Positions 31,336-41,111 of a DNA stretch of 64,000 nucleotides are shown here, piece after piece. The notes under the pieces were generated by a model. The model had not been told where the DNA came from and ran no database searches. It saw only the letters and a program-made list of their open reading frames with translations. Each line of letters begins with the position of its first letter. The first letter of the stretch is position 1. The translations under genes and the position numbers were made by a program. Origin of the DNA: SAR324 cluster bacterium SAR324-CTD7B (GTDB lineage: Bacteria > SAR324 > NAC60-12). The DNA lies in assembly GCA_002082305.1 (NCBI GenBank), contig LSNO01000081.1, positions 2,041 through 66,040 on the forward strand. The letters are read 5' to 3'.

Positions 31336-32973
31336 TTAAGCTTGTTTGTCCTCTTGACGCTGTTCAGCACTCAGACGGCCAAGAGAATACTCATTCAAAT
31401 CAACAAATTTCATATATTTCGCCAGCAAAGGTTGTGCTGCTTCCACTTTCCGGAACATTTCCTGGGCAATACGACGATATCCGGTGTGTCCTTGTGGAGT
31501 ACTGCGAATTTCCGTCAGCCATATCAGGGCCCGTAAATTAATATGTACATACCAGCGAATATTGTAGCTCATTGGCACCACATATTGTGCTTCATAGGGA
31601 AAATCTTTAGCAATCGTTTCAAAGGCTTCAGCAGAACGGGCCATGGTTTCATGATACTCTGCACCTAAACCTGCATCTTCAATTTCATACGGTGTATCAT
31701 AACCAAAGCGTGTAGTCAGTGGTTGACGTTCCTGGGTGAGCATCCGGTGCCTCTGTAAATCACGGTACATGCCGTAATCCCCCAAAATATCGAAAGTGTA
31801 GAAAGGCATCTCCAAACCACGTTCCGGTTTATGCCGTCGGTGATTTCGCAAGGCAACAGTCTCTTCAATCAGTCTGGTTTTTTCTGAATCCGGTAGAGCG
31901 CGGACACGCTCACGTATTTGCTGTAAAGTCAATCCGGAGTGTGAGTAAAGCAAGGCTGCCAGAAGTTTGGTTTCCGCTTCCGGATCAAAATCTACCAGTC
32001 GAACTGCTTCCGCAGAGTCTGCTTTCAATTGCCCCAGATACTTTGAGTAAAATTTACTAATGAGTTTTTGCTGGGCCAGACTGAAATTTCGGAAATCCTG
32101 AAAATGCCGGTGTCCAGCTTCTGCACGCCGTACAAAAGAAGGAATTACTTTTGCTAATTCTTCGAAGGCAAATTGACCAATTTCGTTCAGTTCTCCGAAG
32201 GGCTCGGTTCTTAATTTCATTATCAGGGTTTCAAAAAAACGCCCGTTGCCAAAAACACCCATGTTCGTCAGAGTAGCAGATGGTAATAATCCACGGATAA
32301 TATCAAATCCACGTGCCCTGACGGAACGATCGTATGCGGCTTGACTAATCTCTGGATCACGAGGCAACTGTTTCCGGACGTGTGTCCGCAGTGGTTCAGT
32401 AAAGCGGACATAGGTTTCAAACAGGTTCCGGCAAGTTTCCAAATACAAATCACGGTGCGCGGAATTTAGTAAAGTTGGTTCTTGATAAAATCGGAACTCT
32501 TCATTTCCGGACAATCCGGTTATTTTTTCTGCAAAAGTTACGTAGCGAGTCGATTTTTCTAATGGAGAGCCTCCGATTCGTGCATCTTCCACAGTTTTGG
32601 TAGCTAAAATGGAAATATTTTCCAACGCCAGATGCGCTCCACCAAGTTCGCCAATAGAATCGTCACCATAGCCATCAAGTATCCTGTCATAAAATTTTTG
32701 TGCAGATTCAATGGCCAGTTCCGTCTTTTTTGCAGAATCCGATTGGTTTGAACCAGTTTGCATGTCAGAAAATCTGGATTCTTTTTCCTGAATAAAATCC
32801 CTGAGCAATAATGTGCGAAGTCCAAGAGTCGAACGGGAGTAGCGGGAAAAAAGCGCACCTTTGATTACCTCGGGAAGATTAGTGAGTACAAAAACAGAGC
32901 GGTCTGTATTGGTGACGTAAGAAGAAAGAATGACTTGTTCTTCGGGGGTGAAAACTTCGTTGGAGGTGCTCAT
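31336..32973 (-). CDS. Long-form ThyX/Thy1-domain protein (flavin-dependent thymidylate synthase family, ~545 aa)
   Basis: The C-terminal half carries QRHRMLTQERQPLTTRF (RHR motif) and NLRALIWLTEIRS, which align to ThyX motifs. The N-terminal half is a degenerate second Thy1-like domain. Confidence 0.5.
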   Translation of the reverse strand: MSTSNEVFTPEEQVILSSYVTNTDRSVFVLTNLPEVIKGALFSRYSRSTLGLRTLLLRDFIQEKESRFSDMQTGSNQSDSAKKTELAIESAQKFYDRILDGYGDDSIGELGGAHLALENISILATKTVEDARIGGSPLEKSTRYVTFAEKITGLSGNEEFRFYQEPTLLNSAHRDLYLETCRNLFETYVRFTEPLRTHVRKQLPRDPEISQAAYDRSVRARGFDIIRGLLPSATLTNMGVFGNGRFFETLIMKLRTEPFGELNEIGQFAFEELAKVIPSFVRRAEAGHRHFQDFRNFSLAQQKLISKFYSKYLGQLKADSAEAVRLVDFDPEAETKLLAALLYSHSGLTLQQIRERVRALPDSEKTRLIEETVALRNHRRHKPERGLEMPFYTFDILGDYGMYRDLQRHRMLTQERQPLTTRFGYDTPYEIEDAGLGAEYHETMARSAEAFETIAKDFPYEAQYVVPMSYNIRWYVHINLRALIWLTEIRSTPQGHTGYRRIAQEMFRKVEAAQPLLAKYMKFVDLNEYSLGRLSAEQRQEDKQA

Positions 32974-33620: not shown

Positions 33621-34256
33621 TTATGGGGCCAGGCGCTCAATTTTCCACGATTCATCATCAATTTTTGAATATAAAAAACGATCATGCAGACGGTTAGGCC
33701 GACCCTGCCAAAATTCAAAACTTTTTGGTTTAATTCTGAATCCTCCCCAAAAATCCGGCAATGGAATTTTACCATCTGCAAATTTTCGCTTTATTTCATC
33801 AAGCTTGATTTCCAGAATTTTCCTTGAGGATAACACAGAACGCTGGTCTGAAACCCAGGCGCCCAGTTGACTGCCGCGGGGTCGACCCAAAAAATATTTA
33901 AGTGACTCACTCGTCTCAACTTTTTCTGCAACTCCGTTTATGCTCACCTGCCGTTCCAAAGTAACCCAATTAAACAGCACAGCAACATTGGGATTTTCTG
34001 CTATTTGATCCGCCTTCCTGCTTTTATAATTGGTGAAAAACACAAAACCATTTGCATCAAACAACTTCAGCAGAACAGTTCTCAACATCGGTGCTCCGGA
34101 ATGATTGACTGTTGCGAGACTCATGGCATTCGGTATTGGTTCCGATTCATTCGCTTCCTTAAACCATGCTTCAAATTCCAAAAACGGATCAGGACTTAAT
34201 TGCTCTTTGGTCAGTCCTTCATTCTGGTAGCCCTGACGCTTGAAAGTTAAATCCAT
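33621..34256 (-). CDS. pdxH: Pyridoxamine 5'-phosphate oxidase
   Basis: FMN-binding split barrel, a LRTVLLK region and the C-terminal IEFWQGRPNRLHDR typical of PdxH. Confidence 0.9.
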   Translation of the reverse strand: MDLTFKRQGYQNEGLTKEQLSPDPFLEFEAWFKEANESEPIPNAMSLATVNHSGAPMLRTVLLKLFDANGFVFFTNYKSRKADQIAENPNVAVLFNWVTLERQVSINGVAEKVETSESLKYFLGRPRGSQLGAWVSDQRSVLSSRKILEIKLDEIKRKFADGKIPLPDFWGGFRIKPKSFEFWQGRPNRLHDRFLYSKIDDESWKIERLAP

Positions 34257-36626: not shown

Positions 36627-37183
36627 GCGTGCCTCCCGTATACGTGTCGTTCCTCAACTTCTTTTAGTTCCACTAAAGGCTGCTGTTTATCAATTGGATA
36701 GTCTTTACGGAGCGGATGTCCTTCAAATTCATCGTACATCAAAATCCGTCTCAAGTCCGGATGTCCCTCGAAAACAATCCCGAACATATCAAAACATTCT
36801 CGCTCATACCAGTCTACTGCTTTCCACAAATGATGAATTGAAGCTATTTTACAATCATCTTCAGCTAAACGAACCTTCAGCCTTAAACGTCGGGCGTGGG
36901 TCAATGACTTAAAATGATAAACCATTTCGAAGCGTGGAGTCTCATTCATTTCAAGACGGTCCACTGCAGTCAAGTCCATCATTATCTCAAAAGAACAGCG
37001 TGAATCGTCACGCAAAAAGCGGCAAACAGACTCCAATGCAGACCGTTCTATAATGACTGTTTCGTCACCCCGGTGAGAATGAAAACCGGTCACAGCACCC
37101 GGAAATTCCTGCTCGAGCATGGTTGTTAGTTCACATGCTTCCGGAGGTGTTTCCGTTTCCTGTGTGGAAATTTCTTCACTCAT
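36623..37183 (-). CDS. nuoC: NADH-quinone oxidoreductase subunit C (30 kDa)
   Basis: 186 aa with the characteristic YERECFDMFGIVFEGHPDLRRIL motif. Confidence 0.85.
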   Translation of the reverse strand: MSEEISTQETETPPEACELTTMLEQEFPGAVTGFHSHRGDETVIIERSALESVCRFLRDDSRCSFEIMMDLTAVDRLEMNETPRFEMVYHFKSLTHARRLRLKVRLAEDDCKIASIHHLWKAVDWYERECFDMFGIVFEGHPDLRRILMYDEFEGHPLRKDYPIDKQQPLVELKEVEERHVYGRHA

Positions 37184-37221
37184 TATTCTTTTAAAGGTTC
37201 ATGTTTGATGATAATCACCGG

Positions 37222-37914
37222 TTATTTTTCTTTAAGAGCAGCTTTATCTTTCTGCATTCTTGGAGAGTCATAACCAATATGCGGACTAACATTGACGAAA
37301 TCTTCAGAATACGTGAATCCAGGTGTGCTGATGCGGTTACTTTTTGGATTTTGTAAATTTTCAAAGACTTCTTTTTTGGATATTTCAAAATATCGATTTA
37401 GCTGATCTGCCTTTTGATCTTTATGCCTGATAGCAGTTGGAGTAATACCGTTGGCCGTTGGGCCATCATTTTGAATACTGTTTTGCAATTCCACCAATCC
37501 GTCCAGCACAGCTTCGGGTCGCGGAGGACAGCCTGCAATATAAAGATCAACCGGAATCAAACGGTCAATACCCTGAAGTACAGAATAATTTTGATAGAAT
37601 CCTCCGGAAGATGCACATGCTCCAAAAGCAATCACCCATTTTGGATCTGCCATTTGCTCATAAATCGTCTTTAGGATCGGCGACATTTTATGAGTGATTG
37701 TTCCAACTACCCAGAGAACATCCGCCTGTCTGGGAGAAAATCTGGGAATTTCTGCTCCAAAACGGGAAATGTCATAATGTGAACAGGCTGCGGCCATGTA
37801 CTCCATTCCGCAGCAAGCAGTTACAAACGGATACTGAAAAAGTGAAAATTTCCTGGACCAATTGACCACACTGTCAAATTTTGTGGTTTTAAAACCACCA
37901 TAATCTGTTTCCAT
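37222..37914 (-). CDS. nuoB: NADH-quinone oxidoreductase subunit B (20 kDa) with a ~60-aa C-terminal extension
   Basis: N2-cluster cysteine motifs [14 protein letters not shown] and GCPPRP. Confidence 0.9.
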
Positions 37915-37981
37915 AATTAGTTCCTGTTAAGTTAGCATTATTTGATATTTCTAAATTCCTCTCTTGTCATTGACAGAATTT

Positions 37982-38149
37982 TTAACAACTGACGTTCCAC
38001 TCCTGGAGATATATCATTTGAACCGTGCTTTTTGGTACCGGAAAGGTGTCCCTTCCATTTGAGAAAATAACATGAGAACCTTTTTGACGAACAACTTGAA
38101 ATCCCATTTTTTTTAGGTTTCTCTCAATTTCCCTGTATTTAAACGGCAT
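37982..38149 (-). CDS. hicA: HicA-family mRNA interferase toxin (55 aa). It is absent from the ORF track because it is shorter than 60 aa.
   Basis: Manual minus-strand translation gives MPFKYREIERNLKKMGFQVVRQKGSHVIFSNGRDTFPVPKSTVQMIYLQEWNVSC. The FxxVRQKGSH motif is diagnostic of HicA. Overlaps the hicB stop by 11 nt. Confidence 0.65.
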   Translation of the reverse strand: MPFKYREIERNLKKMGFQVVRQKGSHVIFSNGRDTFPVPKSTVQMIYLQEWNVSC

Positions 38150-38360
38150 ATTGTTCTTGTAATGCAGTCAACTCATTCCTAATGAGACGTTCTGCATTAA
38201 TTTGTTCAAGATGATAGTCCATTATCATTTCAACAACATTTTTCAGTTCTTGAACAGCTTCCTTCTCTGAGTAAGCAAATGCAAAAAGATTGGGCTGATC
38301 TTTCACTTTAGCCAGATAACCATCTCCATCTTTTTCAATAGTTGTTTGCATATTGCCCAT
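38139..38360 (-). CDS. hicB: HicB-like antitoxin (UPF0150 family, short form)
   Basis: IEKDGDGYLAKVKDQPNLFAFAYSEKEAVQELKNVVEMI resembles the HicB N-terminal domain. Paired with hicA. Confidence 0.55.
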   Translation of the reverse strand: MGNMQTTIEKDGDGYLAKVKDQPNLFAFAYSEKEAVQELKNVVEMIMDYHLEQINAERLIRNELTALQEQYAV

Positions 38361-38432
38361 TTTTCACGAAATTATTCTTTTAACGCTGGTCACAGCTGCA
38401 TTTTGAGGTTAAAGAAAAAACAATTTAATGAA

Positions 38433-38795
38433 TTACTCCCATTCCAGCGCACCTTTTTTCCAATCGTAAGCCAAACCAAGAATCAGTATTCCCAAAAAGA
38501 CTGAGCTGGCCACAAAACCAAACCACCCTAATTCACGAATCTGCACTGCCCAGGGATAAAGAAATACCACCTCTACGTCAAAAATTAGAAAGACCAAAGC
38601 AGTCATATAAAATTTAACATCATATCGATGTCCTGCCATTCCATCTCTAAGCAAACCTGATTCAAAGGGGGTCTCCTTAACTTCTCCTCTAAGTTTTGGT
38701 CCCAGAAACAGGCCGATACAGCTAAACGCACCTGCCAGAATGATTCCCAGCACAATCATAATCAATATCGGCAGGTAGCCTGATGCAATGGTCAT
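38433..38795 (-). CDS. nuoA: NADH-quinone oxidoreductase subunit A
   Basis: 120-aa three-TM protein with the ND3-like motifs ETPFESG and YMTALVFLIFDVEVVFLYPWA. Confidence 0.85.
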   Translation of the reverse strand: MTIASGYLPILIMIVLGIILAGAFSCIGLFLGPKLRGEVKETPFESGLLRDGMAGHRYDVKFYMTALVFLIFDVEVVFLYPWAVQIRELGWFGFVASSVFLGILILGLAYDWKKGALEWE

Positions 38796-39015
38796 AAGAG
38801 TAAATAGTTTTACAGGTTTCAGGTTTTTTGAGAACAGTCGGTTTTTTGTCTATGATTTCCTTTATCCCTCTTTTCAAAATATACTGCTAATACAGGAGTA
38901 AAAAGGGAAAGGTTAAAACCCGATTGTTGCACCGTATCAGCAACAAAAAATAGATCCTTCAGCTCAAAATTAGTGTCCCACACAAATCGCAAATTGTAAA
39001 TACATTTCAATTGTT

Positions 39016-40941
39016 TTAACGTACAGTCACACCCGGATTCACGTCTTCCGGAGCTTCAATCAAAACGAGTTTTCCATTATCGTCAGAAAAAAGAATCATG
39101 CCTTCAGAAACTTCGCCCATCAATTTGACCGGTTTCAAGTTTGCAACGACAAGAACTCTCCGATCAGTCAATTCTTCAGGAGTGTAGAATTCAGCTGCTC
39201 CGGAAACTATAGAACGCATACGTCCTTCTGCTAAATCGACTTCAGAACAGAGCAGCTTATTTGATTTTTCCACCTTCCGACAAGATCTGATATGGCCAAC
39301 TTTTAGTTCCATTTTCTGAAAATCGTCAAAAGCCAGCCACTCTTTTCCCTTCTCCGCCGGCTTACTTTCTATTATTTCTGTCAGTTGATCTTTTACAACA
39401 GATTCATTTTTGGCAGAAATTTTCATTTTTGGAAACAACGGTGTTGGTTCCGGCAGTTCCGTTCCCGCTACCAATACTCCGGGAGTAAGTTTCTCAAAAG
39501 GAATTGCCCCTGTACCAAGTCCGAGAGATTTACGAGCCTCGCACATCTTTTCCGGCATTACTGGATCCAGCAAGCCAACCAGGATTCTTGCCATATCCAG
39601 TGCAGTATAAAGGATAGTTCCCAAGAGCTCCCTGTCTTCCGGTTGCCCTGCCAGGCTCCATGGCTTGCAGCTGTCAATGTATTTGTTGACCTGGCTGCTG
39701 AGCCACGCTATGTGTTCCAGAGCACGATGCGGCTGAAAAGCAAGAATGTATTCCCGGCACGTTTCCACTCCTTTGCTAAACGAATTCCGGAGATCTTTTT
39801 CCAGTTCTCCAACTTCACCCAAAGGAGGTACGCAGCCCTCAAAATTATTTCGGCTCATACTTATCGAGCGGTTGAGTAAATTTCCAAAGTTATTGGCTAA
39901 ATCACCGTTGTAACGTGTGATAGCCAAATCTTCAGTAAAATTTGAATCCTCACCAAAACTCATGTCACGCAATAAAAAATAACGTAGGGCATCCACACCA
40001 AGTTGATCTTTCATGGCCAGTGGATCAACCACATTACCAAGAGATTTACTCATCTTGCTGCCTCCTACGACCCAGTGACCGTGAACCACAAGTTTTTTAA
40101 AGACAGGCAAACCTGCGGCCTTGAGCATACACGGCCAGTATATTCCATGCGTTTTTAAAATGTCCTTGCCTATTATGTGGTGTACATGCGGCCAATACTT
40201 TGTATACTTTTCTCCTTCCGGCCAGCCTAAGGCGCTCGCATAATTAAGCAGCGCATCAAACCAGACATAGGTGACAAAGTTTTTATCAAAAGGTAGATCA
40301 ATACCCCAGGCTAACCGGCTTTTAGGGCGGGAAATACACAAATCCTGAAGAGGTGCTTTTAGAAACTGTATTAGCTCATTGCGGTAACGTCCGGGATATA
40401 TCCAGCTTTCATTTTGCTTCAACTCTTCAAGCAGCCAATCCTGGTAAGCACTCATTTTGAAGAAATAATTTTGTTCCTGATAAAATTCAGGTGGTGTTTG
40501 ATGGTCCGGACAATTTCCGTCCTCCAACTCTGCTTCGTCCAAAAAACGTTCGCAACCGACGCAATAAAGACCTTCGTATTCTTTTAGATAAATTTCACCC
40601 TGATCATAAATTTTTTGCAGGATTTGCTGAACACAGGCTTTGTGTTCAGGATCAGTCGTGCGAATAAACTGATCAAAATCAATATGCAGATGCGGCCACA
40701 TTTCACGAAATTCCCGGCTGATCTCGTCCACAAATGCTTGCGGCTCAACATCAGCTTTGGCGGCAGATTCAACTATTTTTTGTCCATGCTCATCGGTGCC
40801 GGTTAAAAAATAAGTGTCATCACCAAACAGTTTACGAAAGCGTGTCAATACATCAGTCACAATCGTAGTGTAAGCATGACCAATGTGTGGATGGCTGTTT
40901 ACATAGTATATTGGAGTGGTAATGTAAAAGGTGTCGGTCAT
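39016..40941 (-). CDS. metG: Methionine--tRNA ligase with C-terminal tRNA-binding (EMAP-like) domain
   Basis: HIGH motif (HPHIGHAY), KMSKS motif, zinc knuckle and C-terminal tRNA-binding domain. Start taken at MTDTFYITTP. Confidence 0.95.
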   Translation of the reverse strand: MTDTFYITTPIYYVNSHPHIGHAYTTIVTDVLTRFRKLFGDDTYFLTGTDEHGQKIVESAAKADVEPQAFVDEISREFREMWPHLHIDFDQFIRTTDPEHKACVQQILQKIYDQGEIYLKEYEGLYCVGCERFLDEAELEDGNCPDHQTPPEFYQEQNYFFKMSAYQDWLLEELKQNESWIYPGRYRNELIQFLKAPLQDLCISRPKSRLAWGIDLPFDKNFVTYVWFDALLNYASALGWPEGEKYTKYWPHVHHIIGKDILKTHGIYWPCMLKAAGLPVFKKLVVHGHWVVGGSKMSKSLGNVVDPLAMKDQLGVDALRYFLLRDMSFGEDSNFTEDLAITRYNGDLANNFGNLLNRSISMSRNNFEGCVPPLGEVGELEKDLRNSFSKGVETCREYILAFQPHRALEHIAWLSSQVNKYIDSCKPWSLAGQPEDRELLGTILYTALDMARILVGLLDPVMPEKMCEARKSLGLGTGAIPFEKLTPGVLVAGTELPEPTPLFPKMKISAKNESVVKDQLTEIIESKPAEKGKEWLAFDDFQKMELKVGHIRSCRKVEKSNKLLCSEVDLAEGRMRSIVSGAAEFYTPEELTDRRVLVVANLKPVKLMGEVSEGMILFSDDNGKLVLIEAPEDVNPGVTVR

Positions 40942-41111
40942 ACGAGTTGAGCAACTATGAATTATTTCTACAAAGTCAAAAAACACCTCTAAAGATTATT
41001 TTTCGACAGATCGGCGAGGAGTGTTTTAAGTATTAGGACTGCACATTTCCTGTGAAATACAGCCGTCATTAAATATAAATTACTTTTTACAAATATAGTT
41101 TCAGCTGGAGA

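Follow-up and report, generated by a model that had tools for sequence, protein, structure and literature searches.

The window analyzed here is a 64,000-nucleotide (nt) stretch of the genome of SAR324 cluster bacterium SAR324-CTD7B (contig LSNO01000081.1, positions 2,041 to 66,040), in which homologs of the hicB and hicA genes known from toxin-antitoxin (TA) systems of type II lie between nuoA and nuoB, inside an array of respiratory complex I genes. An earlier reading of the sequence, referred to here as the original prediction, had described a HicB-like antitoxin open reading frame (ORF) that overlaps by 11 nt an unannotated 55-amino-acid (aa) HicA toxin carrying the motif RQKGSH. It placed the pair about 70 nt from nuoA and about 65 nt from nuoB. 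We confirmed the positions of both ORFs, their overlap, their shared strand, the antitoxin-first order and the motif (residues 21 to 26 of the 55-aa ORF), and measured spacers of 72 and 67 nt. The 55-aa ORF is, however, a frameshifted pseudogene fragment. We consider it very likely that the pair is a horizontally acquired hicB-hicA cassette that inserted into the nuoA-nuoB spacer of one SAR324 subclade and is decaying in this genome.

We compared the 55-aa ORF with the Pfam HicA_toxin profile (PF07927). It scored 41.8 bits (E=1.2e-10; cutoff, 27), which upheld its homology to HicA, and the match covered only positions 1 to 38 of the 58 in the profile. Three-frame translation located the remainder of the gene: past the run 'CCAAAAAGCACGG', it continues in the -1 frame as ...KKHGSNDISPGVERQLLKILSMTREEFRNIK, a typical HicA C terminus, and ends at a stop codon at 37938-37940, 23 nt from the nuoB ATG. 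With an intact-type HicA as the tblastn query, residues 1 to 40 aligned at 38030-38149 and residues 40 to 69 at 37941-38030 in the -1 frame, both with 100% identity. The two segments join at the run of A residues, and the -1-frame remainder comprises 29 codons. When they were joined into a repaired reading, the score against PF07927 rose to 54.5 bits and the match extended over profile positions 1 to 55 of 58. A database search with the joined reading returned 167 homologs, nearly all of them 69 aa long and reading ...PVPKHGS...; the 167 HicA homologs and the 180 found for HicB match far above chance. The homologs indicate that the intact state is 'CCA AAG CAC' (PKH), with three A residues (A3), and that the window copy (A5) has two extra. 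Residues 1 to 40 of the 55-aa frame are therefore conserved in relatives, but its last 15 residues occur in no intact homolog, and the proposed toxin gene is not complete.

In the active-site motif of 24 HicA homologs, G24 and S25 were invariant and H26 was at least 90% conserved. Intact-type HicA aligned end to end with the HicA-like protein TTHA1913 (PDB 1WHZ; E=2.5e-5), its best sequence match. A structural model of the closest intact allele (predicted local distance difference test [pLDDT], 88) contained alpha1 (residues 5 to 14), beta1 to beta3 (18 to 39), alpha2 (48 to 57) and alpha3 (62 to 66). In the window, this fold, which resembles a double-stranded RNA-binding domain (dsRBD; alpha1-beta1-beta2-beta3-alpha2), is not encoded whole in one frame: the frame is lost after residue 40, and alpha2 and alpha3 are gone, while alpha1, beta1 to beta3 and the GSH motif are kept. 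Because both C-terminal helices are lost, the model suggests that the truncated product is most likely unfolded and non-toxic.

The original prediction had instead coupled an mRNA interferase to the NADH dehydrogenase operon, which would require the 55-aa ORF to be a functional short HicA, neutralized by HicB and co-expressed with complex I. Its Pfam score above the cutoff, the retained RQKGSH motif and an intact, overlapping hicB fit such an active pair. GenBank also lists the exact 55-aa sequence as a 'type II toxin-antitoxin system HicA family toxin' (e.g., HBD28892.1), so the ORF is not unannotated, as had been stated. However, the truncated profile match, the 15 residues peculiar to this frame, the true C terminus still readable in the -1 frame, the removal of two helices and the additional, different inactivating lesions in close relatives all point to a broken gene. 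An active pair in this genome is thus very unlikely, and the coupling of an interferase to complex I fails here at the frameshift. The further claim that the toxin would hide from annotation was correct for most metagenome gene callers, which skip the 55-aa ORF, but not for GenBank records. The exact 73-aa product of the upstream ORF is named a HicB family antitoxin in UniRef. Sequences identical to NuoB, NuoD and the two small ORFs are filed under SAR324 cluster bacterium, some of them with the label 'Candidatus Lambdaproteobacteria' or 'Deltaproteobacteria bacterium'.

Recoding could in principle restore the toxin. Through a programmed -1 frameshift or transcriptional slippage at the A run, HicA would be made at full length, with an additional Lys, in low and regulated amounts. 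Shifting by -1 at 'CCA AAA AGC' would read ...PKKHGSN... and stay open to the original stop, the frame beyond the run has kept 100% identity to the intact-type sequence, and both lesion-prone sites in hicA are homopolymers. Read from the sequence, however, 'A CCA AAA AGC' is not an X XXY YYZ heptamer, and a run of five A residues falls short of the length at which transcriptional slippage becomes efficient. Folding of the 91 nt that surround and follow the run was no better than that of shuffled sequences (z = +1.24). Intact relatives are simply in frame with A3, sister contigs carry further frameshifts and stops beyond rescue by one recoding event, and a recent lesion explains the identical downstream frame equally well. 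On the basis of the folding z-score and the allele survey described below, we rejected programmed frameshifting at the A run; recoding in any form appears extremely improbable.

A sequencing or assembly artifact, with hicA really intact, is scarcely credible. The lesion does lie in a homopolymer, and N-gaps occur here in 4 of 16 related, near-identical scaffolds. Nevertheless, the same A5 recurs in 22 loci whose records (ENA, NCBI and JGI) go back to unrelated projects and different assemblers, and this recurrence in independent projects rules against a sequencing error and led us to reject an assembly error as well. A two-base error in a run of 3 to 5 nt is also not typical of Illumina data, and other alleles carry substitutions and deletions, not only run-length noise. 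The four scaffolds with N-gaps (L003, L005, L007 and L008; L numbers designate loci) have them exactly in the hicA region or at the nuoB start (about 4225 to 4600 in locus coordinates), a pattern consistent with co-existing strain variants breaking assemblies at hicA. In L005, the 5' end of nuoB is duplicated across the N-gap.

Table 1. Features of the nuoA-nuoB junction and its flanks (window coordinates)
Feature	Position	Strand	Remarks
metG	39016-40986	minus	ORF upstream of nuoA; 656 aa from GTG
nuoA (120 aa)	38433-38795	minus	PF00507, 111.7 bits; upstream flank of the insertion
nuoA-hicB spacer, 72 nt	38361-38432	minus	GTTAAAA at 38378-38384
hicB, 73 aa from first ATG	38139-38360	minus	Short single-domain antitoxin gene
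hicA pseudogene, whole extent including original stop (37938-37940)	37938-38149	minus	tblastn with intact-type HicA
55-aa ORF: 40 genuine HicA residues plus 15 out-of-frame residues (STVQMIYLQEWNVSC)	37982-38149	minus	PF07927; three-frame translations
A8 homopolymer in hicA (KK codons)	38107-38114	minus	Indel-prone; keeps the frame in the window
A5 homopolymer, the frameshift site	38029-38033	minus	Two more A residues than the A3 of intact alleles
nuoB leader, 23 nt	37915-37937	minus	Follows the original hicA stop immediately; ribosome-binding site AGGA
nuoB (230 aa)	37222-37914	minus	PF01058, 94.7 bits; followed by nuoC, nuoD, nuoH

We surveyed 60 related loci, classified by tblastn and direct inspection, and defined sublineages by NuoB identity to the window: A (at least 98%, including the window), B (92%) and C (93%). 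In sublineage A, hicB was usually intact, and hicA carried A5 in the window and 21 other loci from independent assemblies. The A3 state was present in L004, L005, L017 and L107 and, in sublineage B, in L018 and L135. The A8 run was one base shorter, giving a second frameshift, in L008, L016, L102 and L103; it was two bases shorter in L004 and bore an A-to-G change (M15V) in L009 to L011, L101 and L104. Further sublineage A alleles had a 17-bp deletion in hicA (L003), A3 together with S43* (L004 and L005), or K4* and a frameshift in hicA combined with a stop at codon 5 of hicB (L107). L105 had a stop at codon 54 of hicB. The only A-type contig with an intact hicA was L017 (733 bp), which we rejected as an intact pair on finding a stop at codon 5 of its hicB; no fully intact hicBA pair was found in sublineage A among the surveyed loci. 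In sublineage B, a deletion joined hicB codon 63 to hicA codon 50 in 11 loci, both genes were intact in L018, and in L135 hicA was intact and hicB ran off the end of the contig. Sublineage C included two intact pairs (L019 and L020) and one locus with frameshifts in both genes (L141). Both partners of a functional TA system are thus intact in L018, L019 and L020, and not in the window. Judged from these alleles, the toxin was inactivated at least six separate times in the cassette-bearing subclade.

A 96-aa ORF with a sub-threshold match to Cupin_2 (PF07883; 22.6 bits, cutoff 27.2) lies between nuoA and hicB in sublineage B (L018:3447-3737; also L117 to L124). Counting this cupin-like ORF, some strains have more than one accessory gene at the nuoA-nuoB junction.

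The identity of hicB was less evident from sequence models. The 73-aa protein scored 16.8 bits against the UPF0150-like Pfam family PF21748 (cutoff, 27.3), so the Pfam check of the HicB claim came out negative. Matches of 25 HicB family members to Pfam were all weak (best E, 0.0025), with none of the 25 above the cutoff. An NCBIfam search with the 73-aa protein gave no match, and a PDB profile search gave nothing significant, only chance matches to levanases. The assignment therefore leans on fold and gene linkage. An AlphaFold2 (AF2) model (pLDDT, 94) consisted of three strands and a single long helix (residues 32 to 71) and thus contained the fold of the HicB N-terminal domain, a three-stranded sheet plus a helix. 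There was no second domain, and neither a C-terminal ribbon-helix-helix (RHH) nor a helix-turn-helix (HTH) DNA-binding domain. The top Foldseek matches in the PDB were N-terminal domains of HicB/UPF0150 proteins (2dsy, 6g1c, 6g1n, 6u0i, 6g26, 6hpb_B, 1wv8 and 4p78), with probabilities of 0.9 to 1.0 and E-values of only 0.07 to 1. Against 6g1c, the query-normalized TM-score (TMq) was 0.60, with a root mean square deviation of 1.6 Å over 50 columns; against 2dsy, the probability was 1.00 and the TMq 0.54.

Gene linkage pointed the same way. The family consists of proteins of about 72 aa, 66 to 84% identical to the window copy and named HicB by several sources. Its members adjoin HicA homologs in Thioglobus, Bathymodiolus symbionts, Kentrum, Achromatium, Chlorobaculum and others, as adjacent pairs (e.g., BHECKSOX_534/535 and TI05_05855/05860). 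By tblastn, hicB was followed directly by an overlapping hicA in 10 non-nuo loci as well as in the nuo-embedded ones. By its predicted fold and conserved pairing with hicA, the 73-aa ORF encodes a short HicB that consists of a single domain and lacks one for DNA binding. Its true start is probably the second ATG at 38351, giving 70 aa ('MQTTIEKDG...'), because family members and L018 begin there.

The location of the cassette is real and unusual, and it is confined to one SAR324 subclade. The exact NuoA protein was present in 610 collection blocks, and the 73-aa ORF always came next in the contigs that were read. At the nuoA-nuoB junction, the cassette was restricted to sublineages whose NuoB is at least 92% identical to that of the window. 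Sister lineages with the same metG-nuoA-nuoB synteny (NuoB 90, 87 and 78%) showed no hic similarity at this junction. In the window, nuoA and nuoB are 518 nt apart; the cassette-less spacers measured 117 nt in the 90% tier, about 120 nt in the 87% tier, and 25 nt in the very abundant 78% tier. L021 (NuoB 75%) likewise has no cassette and a spacer of about 21 nt. We also inspected a background set of 76 diverse genomes, all of them, among the NuoA matches listed, at most 58% identical. None of the 76 had a hic gene between nuoA and nuoB, which agrees with the unusual location originally claimed, and the two genes were no more than 160 nt apart in 75 of them. One uncultured gammaproteobacterium of this set (L032:3360-3720) has a gap of about 352 nt without hic similarity. 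A search of the published literature on HicA/HicB with nuoA, or on SAR324 with toxin-antitoxin, found nothing relevant; the nuoA-nuoB junction is a new, apparently unpublished site for a known kind of element.

Composition and divergence set the cassette apart from its surroundings. Its GC content is 34 to 37%, compared to 43 to 46% in the flanks. The low GC, the empty site in SAR324-like lineages with NuoB 78 to 90% identical and the absence from all 76 other genomes argue that the cassette was acquired. Between sublineages, nucleotide identity was 81 to 83% for nuoA and 85 to 87% for nuoB, but 94 to 97% for hicB and 90 to 93% for hicA. Synonymous divergence (dS) was 0.13 to 0.25 for hicB, against 1.4 to 1.6 for nuoA and 0.76 to 0.99 for nuoB; the ratio of nonsynonymous to synonymous divergence (dN/dS) of hicB was about 0.1. 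L108 to L116 (e.g., L111:2504-2716) contain a second hicB, an orphan (87% identical) behind which hicA is reduced to about its first 15 codons. This orphan lies downstream of peroxiredoxin-like and sulfide:quinone-oxidoreductase-like (SQR-like) ORFs, named from translations read by eye. L106 has nuoA and nuoB identical to those of the window, and the 3' third of its hicB is a gene-conversion tract in which 18 of 19 differences match the L111 orphan; an L111-type allele was the apparent donor. In view of its lower divergence compared with the flanks and of the tract in L106, the cassette recombines. These comparisons suggest that it was exchanged among sublineages after their divergence, although a single old insertion under unusual constraint would be an alternative.

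The same hicBA module occurs in unrelated contexts (L127 to L140). In the window and in 7 loci whose flanks are unrelated, a heptamer, GTTAAAA or GTTAGAA, precedes hicB by 32 to 47 nt, and the 3' part of the nuoA-hicB spacer is a leader common to hicB copies in unrelated contexts. Directly after hicA, L127 (1271-1355) and L132 (1897-1960) have imperfect palindromes of 57 to 80 nt bounded by ACCTAAC (RYYYAAC) and GTTAAGC. Imperfect palindromes bounded by heptamers of the RYYYAAC and GTTAAGC type are the layout of integron attC sites. L139 and L140 carry the inverted repeat CCATCGTTAAAACGATGG on both sides of the hicBA pair, which suggests cassette arrays. HicAB modules are known as integron cassettes, both from metagenomic integrons and from Treponema denticola (PMC4909258, PMC7370490). 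No attC accompanies the window copy, where only 23 nt separate the stop codon of hicA from nuoB. The heptamer behind this stop, ACTTAAC, was considered as an attC R'' remnant and rejected: the motif 'TTAACA(A)GGAAC' before the nuoB ATG is also present in the cassette-less L145, and the heptamer is therefore probably native nuoB leader. Neither an integrase nor a cassette array was seen around the window copy, where no search was aimed at intI in the window or related loci. A repeat search in the cassette gave short, often-chance pairs and no terminal repeats or target-site duplication.

We then considered how the pair would be expressed. No sigma70-like promoter site was found on the coding strand between 37100 and 39100, with a scan consensus that may not fit SAR324 promoters, and the coding strand of the cassette showed no terminator-like site either. 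An Rfam scan of 37000-39200 gave only a chance-level match (E 0.95), inside nuoA. With no promoter- or terminator-like site inside the cassette, co-transcription with nuoA and nuoB would be the default, and passive co-transcription of hicBA with them the simplest expectation. Since HicB has no DNA-binding domain and the pair no evident promoter of its own, expression from the nuo transcript would probably be passive.

We propose the following course of events for the acquired and decaying cassette. In the sister sublineages, the intact 69-aa HicA would act as a dsRBD-like, His-dependent mRNA interferase, and the single-domain HicB of about 70 aa would neutralize it by direct binding. The pair would be expressed passively from the nuo transcript, like a promoterless gene cassette. 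In the window, insertion of two A residues into the A3 run shifted the hicA frame after codon 40, and the intact hicB would be either a not-yet-eroded orphan or a retained 'anti-addiction' antitoxin.

For the intact copies in L018, L019 and L020, a bolder extension can be formulated. An unregulated HicBA, transcribed within the complex I operon, would have spread among diverged sublineages by homologous recombination with the nuoA and nuoB ends as arms. It would thus have used an essential operon selfishly for expression and transmission, followed by repeated inactivation of the toxin. Two observations fit this scenario, namely the conversion tract in L106 and a synonymous divergence that is unusually low in the cassette when set against its flanks; we nonetheless hold it to be unlikely.

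Several points weigh against a decaying acquired cassette. HicB membership is argued from fold and linkage, with Pfam below the cutoff, no sequence match in the PDB and modest Foldseek E-values. The truncated HicA keeps its GSH motif and may have residual activity. An integron-cassette origin is suggestive: the window copy is without attC and its heptamer is probably native nuoB leader, so this origin can be put forward only as a conjecture. Finally, the preservation of hicB (the identical 73-aa sequence is found in 522 contigs and 828 collection blocks, and its dN/dS is low) could mean retained function.

This last point deserves closer attention, since hicB might have been kept for a function of its own after loss of the toxin, for example as an anti-addiction antitoxin against incoming HicA of the same cassette family. 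Its exact sequence persists beside a broken hicA, the same HicA/HicB family is found at 65 to 80% identity in many marine taxa, and the second orphan hicB with a truncated hicA (L108 to L116) offers a parallel. Against this, hicB has nonsense or frameshift alleles in L017, L105, L107 and L141, and its C terminus is lost in the deletion fusions of sublineage B. Within sublineage A, the few changes in L104 and L107 are mostly nonsynonymous (6 versus 1). Moreover, the low dN/dS was measured against toxin-bearing lineages, and identity across contigs may only reflect recent clonal expansion. We regard retention for an own function as somewhat unlikely.

Compared to the characterized HicAB systems of E. 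coli (6hpb), Burkholderia pseudomallei (6g26) and Yersinia pestis (HicA3B3, 4p78), the SAR324 pair has the same HicA domain (PF07927), GSH motif and, in intact alleles, dsRBD-like alpha-beta3-alpha fold, as well as the beta3-alpha fold of the HicB N terminus and the arrangement as two small overlapping genes. It differs in its antitoxin-first order, its place inside a nuo array and the lack of an evident promoter of its own. Its HicB is a single domain of about 70 aa with a long helix and neither RHH nor HTH, and in the window the toxin is frameshifted. The best structural matches of the 73-aa protein, Thermus thermophilus TTHA0281 (2dsy) and TTHA1013 (1wv8), are likewise short and free of a DNA-binding domain. 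Their identity to HicB is only 18 to 22%, and the C-terminal helix of the marine family (residues 32 to 71) is much longer.

The integron TA cassettes cited above (PMC4909258, PMC7370490) are similar in being small, promoterless, AT-rich two-gene units in many unrelated contexts. The attC-like palindromes after the L127 and L132 copies and the GTTAAAA heptamer at a fixed distance upstream add to the likeness. The window copy, in contrast, has no attC and sits in a housekeeping operon. With degenerate TA loci and orphan antitoxins, the SAR324 remnant shares the early loss of the toxin by several independent lesions, the longer life of the antitoxin and a presence/absence polymorphism among close relatives. 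Unlike them, it belongs to a marine lineage that is uncultured and very abundant, is fixed there at one precise site within an essential respiratory operon, and has diverged less than its flanks.

The surroundings of the cassette also showed several features of their own. In public gene calls metG is 641 aa, and its true start is probably 15 codons downstream of the GTG. Between nuoD and nuoH, the window contains no nuoE, nuoF or nuoG. A pyridoxamine-phosphate-oxidase-like (pdxH-like) gene lies between nuoH and a nuoI-like 2x[4Fe-4S] ferredoxin gene, which is followed by thyX and upp. The pdxH-like/ThyX region occupies 33621-34256 and 31336-32973 on the minus strand, and ThyX is 545 aa, double length, with two Thy1 stretches. 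Because the nuo array of the window is interleaved with such unrelated genes, an embedded foreign gene is less remarkable than it sounds. NuoB extends about 85 residues past its Pfam domain (residues 34 to 143); this C-terminal extension (residues 145 to 230, approximately; 37222-37480, minus strand) lies in a low-GC stretch (33 to 39%) and is kept in other SAR324 sublineages.

Taken together, hicBA in the window is a selfish cassette of an ordinary kind, decaying at an unusual location, and not an active toxin wired to respiration; no new mechanism and no regulatory link between respiration and mRNA decay is revealed in this genome. For annotation, the GenBank 'HicA family toxin' calls for the 55-aa ORF are truncated pseudogene fragments, and local strain heterogeneity appears to break metagenome scaffolds at hicBA. 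The locus illustrates cleanly, in nature, the life cycle through which a TA cassette passes in a bacterial group that ranks among the most abundant uncultured ones of the dark ocean. In its visible stages, the cassette inserts at a precise site of a respiratory operon and spreads and recombines among sublineages; its toxin is inactivated repeatedly, by independent events, and its antitoxin erodes more slowly. Most interesting are the evidence that a cassette spread and recombined at one fixed site in an essential operon and the presence of intact copies in sister sublineages.

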